Source: Eledone cirrhosa
Taxonomy: Eukaryota
DNA length: 64,000 bases
NCBI GenBank assembly: GCA_964016885.1
Contig: OZ024752.1
Coordinates: 11,222,001 to 11,286,000 of the forward strand
Direction: 5' to 3'
The translations under genes were made by a program, and so were the position numbers. Below are positions 32,285 to 33,302 of this stretch, one piece after another (the stretch's first letter is position 1; each line of letters starts with the position of its first letter). A model generated the notes under the pieces. That model saw only the letters and a list, made by a program, of their open reading frames with translations. It ran no database searches and had not been told where the DNA came from.

Positions 32285-32318
<34 letters not shown>

Positions 32319-32358
32319 ATGTATACACACGTAAATATATATATGTAGTAAGAAAAAT

Positions 32359-32438
<80 letters not shown>

Positions 32439-32452
32439 ATAATATAGAAATT

Positions 32453-32501
32453 GCTTCTACAGGACTAGAACTGTTTCATTCGGGAGCAATCATCAGGAAA
32501 C
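32453..32501 (-). ncRNA. type I hammerhead motif (family H5); further cores at 32504-32547(+), 32741-32784(-), 32787-32830(+)
   Basis: GTTTC-CTGATGA-TTGCTCCCGAAT-GAAA-CAG(TTCTAGTC)CTG-TA-GAAGC; core intact, stem II weak. Confidence 0.6.
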
Positions 32502-32921
32502 CGCTGATGATTTCTCCCGAATGAAACAATTCTAGTCCTGTAGAAGCAATTTCTATATTATATATATATATATATTTATATATATATGTGTGTGTGATTT
32601 TTCTTACTATATATATATATTCACGTGTGTATATATATAATGTGTGTGTGTGTGTATGTATACACACGTAAATATATATATATATATATATATAGTAAGA
32701 AAAATCACACACATATATATATATATATAATATAGAAATGGCTTCTACAGGACTAGAACTGTTTCATTCGGGAGAAATCGTCAGCGTCTTCCTGATGATT
32801 TCTCCCGAATGAAACAGTTCTTATACTGTAAAATTTATTTCTAAACTAAATATGTATACTCTGCTATGTATTGATAACCTTACTTACTGTGGTTATGTAA
32901 TAAAGAACGTAAGATAATTAT

Positions 32922-32982
32922 TTCATTTACCAGTGGTTTCTTGAAGGCAGATGTTATGTCTGTCTTCAGTCGTCAGAATGAA
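32922..32982 (-). ncRNA. type I hammerhead ribozyme (family H6), minus copy
   Basis: Reverse complement of 33028-33088. Confidence 0.72.
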
Positions 32983-33027
32983 TAAATACCATGGTGTTTT
33001 TATTAAAAATAAAAACACCGTTATTTA

Positions 33028-33088
33028 TTCATTCTGACGACTGAAGACAGACATAACATCTGCCTTCAAGAAACCACTGGTAAATGAA
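33028..33088 (+). ncRNA. type I hammerhead ribozyme (family H6), plus copy
   Basis: TTCATT-CTGACGA-CTGAAGACAGA..TCTGCCTTCAA-GAAA-CCACTGG-TA-AATGAA. Confidence 0.72.
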
Positions 33089-33302
33089 ATAATTATCTTA
33101 TGTTATTTATTACATAACTATGTATTAAAGTTTAAGCAAAACTCAGTTTCAGGAGATCCTGTCAAGGGTTAAGCAGCGATTATTTGCTTAAACCTTAATC
33201 TGTTATTTCAATAAATATTTGCTCTATGGTTTTTATATATTTGATATATATATATTTGTCCTTATCGAGCCCACTTCGAATTTTAGATTTCACATTTATT
33301 AT

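Follow-up and report, generated by a model that had tools for sequence, protein, structure and literature searches.

Hammerhead-bearing palindromes in an Eledone cirrhosa contig, probable head-to-head PLE ends with one small inverted triplication

Three consecutive palindromes lie at 32300-33120 of the window (the whole 64-kb stretch of DNA analyzed), and they are likely dead, 5′-truncated, hammerhead-bearing ends of Penelope-like retroelements (PLEs) that meet head to head within DNA rich in (TA)n. We think it quite probable that PLE head-to-head ends together with one small inverted triplication account for all three. One hairpin (H5a) is likely a later inverted triplication of the left half of the H5 pair, and with H5a derived in this way alongside the other H5 hairpin (H5b), the six hammerhead cores of the palindromes probably reduce to two insertion events. 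The palindromes are best read as adding further examples to the PLE head-to-head structures already described. The locus itself, likely a transposon remnant, carries little weight; what it contributes is data on how PLE head-to-head structures form, for which the cited sections of two papers offer self-priming (PMC3846280) and, from in vitro work, two-start-site extension of both strands (PMC11167929). With several minimal pairs per 64 kb, countable arm ends and junction microhomologies could separate these models.

Hammerhead cores in three palindromes

Self-comparison of the window sequence recovered palindromes at 32437-32563 (H5a), approximately 32725-32851 (H5b; 32718-32858 with wider bounds), and 32892-33118 (H6). 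The H5a arms (32424-32496/32504-32576) are 89% identical, and the inversion continues at 89% identity into the flank (32318-32396/32559-32637), in agreement with a preliminary description of an H5 hairpin whose inversion reaches flanking microsatellite; H6, which had been credited with arms of about 110 bp, has arms of 113 nt at 92% identity (32892-33004/33006-33118). All six arms carry CTGANGA, GAAA, and a GTA triplet in type I order (cores at 32496-, 32504+, 32784-, 32792+, 32976-, and 33034+), so that the reported six cores in three palindromes are present, yet helix I is kept in only three arms (5 bp in H5a-left, 6 bp in both H6 arms) and amounts to 0 bp in the remaining three. The features of the locus and its surroundings are as follows.

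32300 to 32436, plus strand: flank F copy 1, a local microsatellite with two non-repeat anchors (32324+ and 32347+), each found three times in the 64 kb
32437 to 32496, minus strand: H5 arm A, a tail-less hammerhead end and the sole H5 arm to keep helix I, which has 5 bp and draws on the loop; predicted cut after 32458
32497 to 32503, minus strand: H5a loop, the 5′ strand of helix I, flipped relative to H5b
32504 to 32563, plus strand: H5 arm B, a core without helix I (0 bp), part of the inverted middle copy; 2 to 3 differences per 60 nt from arms A and C
32564 to 32637, minus strand: flank F inverted copy (anchors 32608- and 32631-), an inverted repeat
32623 to 32669, no strand: second triplication junction, in (TA)n/(TG)n, with 11-nt inverted arms and a 25-nt spacer
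32638 to 32724, plus strand: flank F direct copy 3 (anchors 32661+ and 32694+)
32725 to 32784, minus strand: H5 arm C, a tail-less core without helix I, ending in (TA)n
32785 to 32791, plus strand: H5b loop, the 5′ strand of helix I
32792 to 32895, plus strand: H5 arm D with the family 3′ tail, decayed at 32821-32846; tail cut at 32895 by H6
32892 to 33003, minus strand: H6 left arm, a type I hammerhead with 6-bp helix I and long helix II; predicted cut after 32928
33007 to 33118, plus strand: H6 right arm, the same hammerhead; predicted cut after 33082
33127 to 33300, plus strand: H2 repeat, high copy, with an internal inverted segment and no CTGANGA core
33330 to 33500, no strand: H3 family, an inverted tail piece, filler, and a 5′-truncated half-hammerhead (GAAA, helix III)
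33642 to 33706, no strand: small head-to-head pair of GAAA half-cores
33812 to 33911, plus strand: H7, a single complete type I hammerhead with a G-C closing helix II (core at 33824+)
15889 to 16180, no strand, supporting context: independent head-to-head pair of complete hammerheads with a tail on one arm
16885 to 17067, plus strand, supporting context: PLE-type reverse transcriptase (RT) remnant inside a head-to-head H3 pair (16788-17133)

A strict type I hammerhead scan of the 64 kb returned 10 folds, against 0 to 2 in each of 10 block shuffles, and 7 folds against none at a higher score, and hammerhead motifs in the window therefore exceed chance. Rfam hammerhead families gave no match at gathering score across the whole 64-kb window, nor did any appear among the 98 matches at an E value of ≤10 in 32300-34000; Rfam miRNA matches, all below gathering score, were set aside as generic hairpin matches of no relevance. 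The helix II closing pair G10.1-C11.1 is missing from both H5 and H6, while G-C closes helix II in H7 and in the copy at 16086. In H5, helix II is very short and does not fold alone, and helix III has 4 bp; in H6, helix II has 9 bp closed by U-A, helix III is a near-palindromic 3 bp, and the two arms are 3 substitutions and 4 gap columns apart in 114. By appearance these are PLE-type type I hammerhead ends, which supports their earlier designation as ribozyme elements. The window is AT-rich and laden with microsatellites (GC, 0.19 to 0.42 per 2 kb), and no coding gene was recognized among its long reading frames.

The H2, H3, and H7 elements said to follow by 33902 are present in part as hammerheads: H7 has a complete type I fold, and H2 and H3 are confirmed as repeats but contain no CTGANGA core there. 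We rejected H2 as a hammerhead for want of a core and helix I. Copies of the H2 family (33127-33300, 11235-11462, 2585-2752) combine a CAG-type near-core, a short stem, and GAAA, and the family may be an atypical or lost ribozyme.

Flank order and arm relationships of the H5 hairpins

The two flank anchors, each with three occurrences, run in +, -, + order (32347/32608/32694 and 32324/32631/32661), and the strand on which the 7-nt H5 loop reads is minus in H5a but plus in H5b. A shared local flank in +/-/+ order combined with flipped loops is what a small inverted triplication looks like. The overall layout reads flank-arm, flipped loop, arm-flank (inverted), flank-arm, loop, and arm plus tail, with units of approximately 195, 140, and 150 nt and spacers of 7 and 25 nt, that is, direct-inverted-direct copies with two short-spacer palindromic junctions. 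The second H5 hairpin of the preliminary description is thus real, but the direct duplication in which it was placed is instead part of this inverted triplication. Arms A, B, and C are 2 to 3 bases in 60 apart and arm D differs from each at 11 of 60, and the flank F copies are themselves unequal, with CA repeats of different lengths, (CA)11/5/4, as well as substitutions.

Two details count against the favored account or add a step to it. One base is common to arms A and B but absent from C and from the family, which needs later arm-to-arm conversion, and the 11 differences of arm D are gathered within 30 nt. Arm D at 32821-32846 shows about nine substitutions, one of which lengthens helix III; the 29-nt core before them is perfect, and the tail after them is close to the consensus.

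Small inverted triplications of 148/160/148 bp with a 30-bp spacer and breakpoints near microsatellites have been reported (PMC13334657), and the H5 unit and spacer sizes come close to these. The H5 region shares with that ODIRA-type DUP-INV-DUP, as presented in the cited part of the paper, copies of about 150 nt in direct-inverted-direct order, two palindromic junctions with short spacers, and a breakpoint in microsatellite; it differs in being an old, fixed feature of an invertebrate assembly where the published events are somatic or mutant, and in that one of its junctions is a transposon-made hairpin.

Family copies and other inverted pairs

We compared 32421-33300 with 4 of 19 listed public runs, a list that included no RNA run: X1 and X2, which represent one sample; X17, raw RAD-seq data with the same species label; and X5, from another organism. 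Each returned 5,500 to 11,706 records on the 880 nt compared, and with a best share of words of 0.36 the runs show the families, not the 32300-33120 locus. H5, H6, and H2 are high copy in X1, X2, and X17, and H5 is also high copy in X5. Loose ends fall at 32837 and 32895 in all four runs, delimiting an H5 3′ tail (32837-32895) that in other copies runs about 20 nt further into TA/CA repeats; from these ends, arm D is the tail-bearing copy, cut by H6, and arms A to C stop tail-less in (TA)n. At 32499, upstream of helix I, most H5 copies carry unrelated sequence (agreement, 0.44 to 0.62) with heterogeneous loose ends, the picture that 5′ truncation would give. Judging by the low-agreement consensus there, a 3-nt natural inverted repeat may flank the H5 loop, with a second family alike at 46627-46663. 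Scans of metagenomes for the H5 patterns found no loci.

We propose that H5 would first have been reverse transcribed into a (TA)n target from both break ends, or by fold-back of one cDNA, with one copy begun at a tail-less site and the other at a tail-bearing site and the two joined at the short inverted repeat that naturally surrounds the helix I 5′ strand, which would have produced H5b. A (TA)n/(TG)n quasi-palindrome lies about 130 nt upstream of the H5b hairpin, and template switching between the two could then have copied flank, arm, and loop backwards and then forwards, yielding H5a with its flipped loop; here the layout is observed and the mechanism conjectural. Finally, an H6 head-to-head pair would have landed in or beside the H5 tail, removing its last ~20 nt.

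A less favored reading is that the palindromic H5 (and H6) unit is a small nonautonomous hairpin element copied whole rather than remade at each insertion. Among the 24 pieces listed of 26,840, four contigs from one sample span the H5a centre (32453-32547) with 9 to 12 other letters, one of them at a depth of 286.7 where most listed pieces have 4 to 22, and the H6 centre is covered by two. Hairpin centres of this kind are thus also present, at other loci or alleles, in independent short-read data. No piece among those listed spans 32421-33300 or the locus's own junctions, 32548-32740 having been passed over as repeat. Copying as a unit sits poorly, however, with a depth over the H5a loop of about 1% of that over the arm (1,213 versus 116,321 in X1), with the unrelated sequence into which most copies continue at 32499, and with the varying loop lengths and H6 centres (gaps), and repeated joining at one micro-inverted repeat accounts for the same data. 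We hold it unlikely that the genome has ORF-less "double-hammerhead" hairpin families, each with two PLE 3′ ends that join at a fixed micro-inverted repeat in helix I, amplified as a unit. If it does, their one-arm-tail asymmetry would record two simultaneous reverse transcriptions at both break ends, and the families would allow a genome-scale test of PLE inverted-repeat formation.

The reading as separately formed PLE head-to-head ends also draws on the rest of the window. Eleven inverted pairs from the self-comparison were aligned, 8 of which bear a hammerhead core or half-core, and the cores or half-cores point outward in all 8 orientable pairs (7 with H5a counted as derived); orientation could not be assigned for 13433-13846, 46984-47400, and 54251-54296. 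The tail is on a single arm in 5 of the 7 independent oriented pairs (H5b, 15889-16180, 16788-17133, 45344-45485, and 56760-57453), the other two being H6, in which a tail on one arm only was not seen, and 48985-49299, whose tail status is ambiguous. Similar palindromes elsewhere in the window mean that the 32300-33120 locus is not special.

The RT remnant of 61 codons matches 8 of 19 candidate proteins (E values of 2e-13 to 6e-8). One of these matches contains RVT_1 at an E value of 1.7e-4, below the Pfam cutoff, and Pfam called no family in 5 of the 6 proteins scanned; in another matched protein (P0007), an RT catalytic motif followed by a GIY-YIG-like C terminus can be recognized by eye, where Pfam made no call. 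A tblastn and HMM search over the window found this single significant RT remnant, in the H3 pair, and none for H5 or H6, which are therefore tied to PLEs by architecture and not by an ORF. Within the H3 pair region (16788-17260), only the right arm bears the tail.

Relation to known elements, RNA folding, and clustering

PLEs typically have an inverted 5′-truncated copy and a 30- to 40-bp tail at one end (PMC8557442), and in their most frequent arrangement inverted repeats face head to head across palindromic junctions, which has been attributed to self-priming from an antisense template (PMC3846280). A PLE protein cleaves and extends both strands in vitro, with two RT start sites that bound the tail, and PLE targets are AT-rich and the hammerhead dispensable for insertion (PMC11167929). 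As far as the cited portions of these accounts extend, the palindromes share with the head-to-head pLTR of endonuclease-positive (EN+) PLEs (PMC3846280; PMC8557442) an inverted 5′-truncated copy, a palindromic junction, a tail on one arm, a (TA)n or otherwise AT-rich target, and a hammerhead in the repeated end. In contrast to the pLTR, both H5/H6 copies are cut to about 60 to 115 nt with no ORF between the arms, and no target-site duplication is readable at H5/H6. Across the window, a head-to-head inverted 5′-truncated copy, an EN+ PLE trait, was found in every orientable pair. The 3′ tail at one end only, seen in the five pairs named above, and the dispersed high-copy families with variable 5′ truncation and a simple-repeat target are EN+ PLE traits as well.

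The minimal hammerheads of PLEs have low activity (PMC4209133). Like the minimal and variant forms covered in that source, those described here are type I, with a short helix I and an unpaired base after A9, and H6 also shares their small near-palindromic helix III; unlike them, H5 and H6 are without G10.1-C11.1, and H5 has its very short helix II and 4-bp helix III. In the partial literature covered, only the cited PLE papers turned up for ORF-less head-to-head hammerhead pairs.

It is improbable that H5 and H6 are non-LTR retrozymes (tandem hammerhead repeats with circular RNA) in which inversion is secondary. Retrozymes are tandems proposed as PLE derivatives (10.64898/2026.07.22.740005) and, in the cited part of that work, are noncoding and PLE-related with type I hammerheads, as here. 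They are, however, head-to-tail tandems, whereas H5 and H6 form head-to-head pairs, and the locus has no head-to-tail monomer tandem, its units being about 60 to 115 nt and inverted; because they are inverted, the H5/H6 copies cannot form a PLE-type tandem dimer in cis.

A still smaller chance attaches to the triplication, or all three hairpins, being an assembly, amplification, or long-read fold-back chimera. No independent read among those listed spans the locus junctions, and the palindrome at 46984-47400, with 4 single-base gaps in 203 columns, looks error-like. Against a chimera, the three flank copies differ by substitutions and in repeat length, and the unequal repeat lengths argue for age rather than a fresh artifact; the junctions respect element ends and polarity in all 8 oriented pairs; and short-read contigs of separate public runs hold similar hairpin centres.

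RNA from the palindromes was modeled by folding. Each palindrome in full is predicted to adopt a long hairpin (-91.5, -64.7, and -168.4 kcal/mol) in which the tested helix I/III pairs have a probability of 0.000; in single arms, the pair probability is 0.15 to 0.24 for H6 (helices I/III) and 0.04 to 0.14 for H5a-left. Single-arm MFE folds are mostly unremarkable (z, +0.97 to -2.26) and were not counted as evidence. Read-through RNA is therefore predicted to be non-cleaving double-stranded RNA, a near-perfect hairpin that would block the ribozyme fold, leaving the ribozymes silent and the RNA a possible double-stranded RNA substrate. The earlier statement that either strand yields a hammerhead plus its antisense is true by construction, but the predicted hairpin would abolish the ribozyme fold; the comparison of single arms with full hairpins proposed there, made by predicted folding only, gives the tested ribozyme pairs a higher probability in the former than in the latter. 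The earlier suggestion that such RNA could feed small-RNA pathways has a precedent in Penelope inverted repeats (PMC3681739). The least probable reading, that selection maintains the cluster for a function, as a ribozyme switch or as a hairpin-RNA gene silencing the families, could appeal to these near-perfect hairpins and to siRNAs matching Penelope inverted regions in Drosophila (PMC3681739, in the part cited), but helix I is lost from three of six cores, decay has affected arm D, the neighbouring sequence showed no recognized long coding frame, and similar pairs are scattered across the window.

The claim of an insertion hotspot for ribozyme elements draws slight support. If each set of derived copies is counted once, a 1.4-kb span holds 3 of 10 events (P = 0.145); when 8 H2/H3 copies lacking a core are included, it holds 5 of 18 (P = 0.009, with the span chosen post hoc), and a 700-bp span holds 3 of 18 (P = 0.24). 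Events were compiled by hand with pairs and the triplication collapsed, and other relaxed cores, such as that at 59181, were left out. A naive test of clustering, in which 700 bp held 6 of 17 cores (0 of 20,000 shuffles), was rejected for including derived copies: one insertion plus the triplication accounts for four of the six cores, and hammerhead core counts should be used with caution, as they overstate insertion number. Mild nesting of elements in the cluster is plausible, and nesting is expected where elements cleave their own ends as well as AT-rich DNA.

Several other repeats were seen in the window. A further hammerhead family, H1, is represented by a near-perfect pair, a single copy, a decayed pair, and one fold-back copy (15889-16180, 14950-15254, 56760-57453, and 46470-46663); one H1 copy has a 16-bp fold-back at a natural micro-inverted repeat. 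The palindrome at 46984-47400 has arms of about 200 bp with 3 substitutions in addition to its gaps and no CTGANGA core, and is possibly a degenerate PLE end or error-prone sequence. Single hammerhead-like cores occur at 11131, 49211, 49506, 59181, and 60610, several of which end in (TA)n. A SINE-like repeat of about 190 bp is abundant (7188-7983, 13433-14233, 18224-18616, 30389-31083, 45012-45234, and 63516-63749), with an old inverted pair at 13433-13846. Long-distance duplications, each including several different repeats, link 44383-45396 with 62864-63900 and 1302-1630 with 61543-61789, and a tandem minisatellite with a period of about 50 bp occupies 8063-9613.
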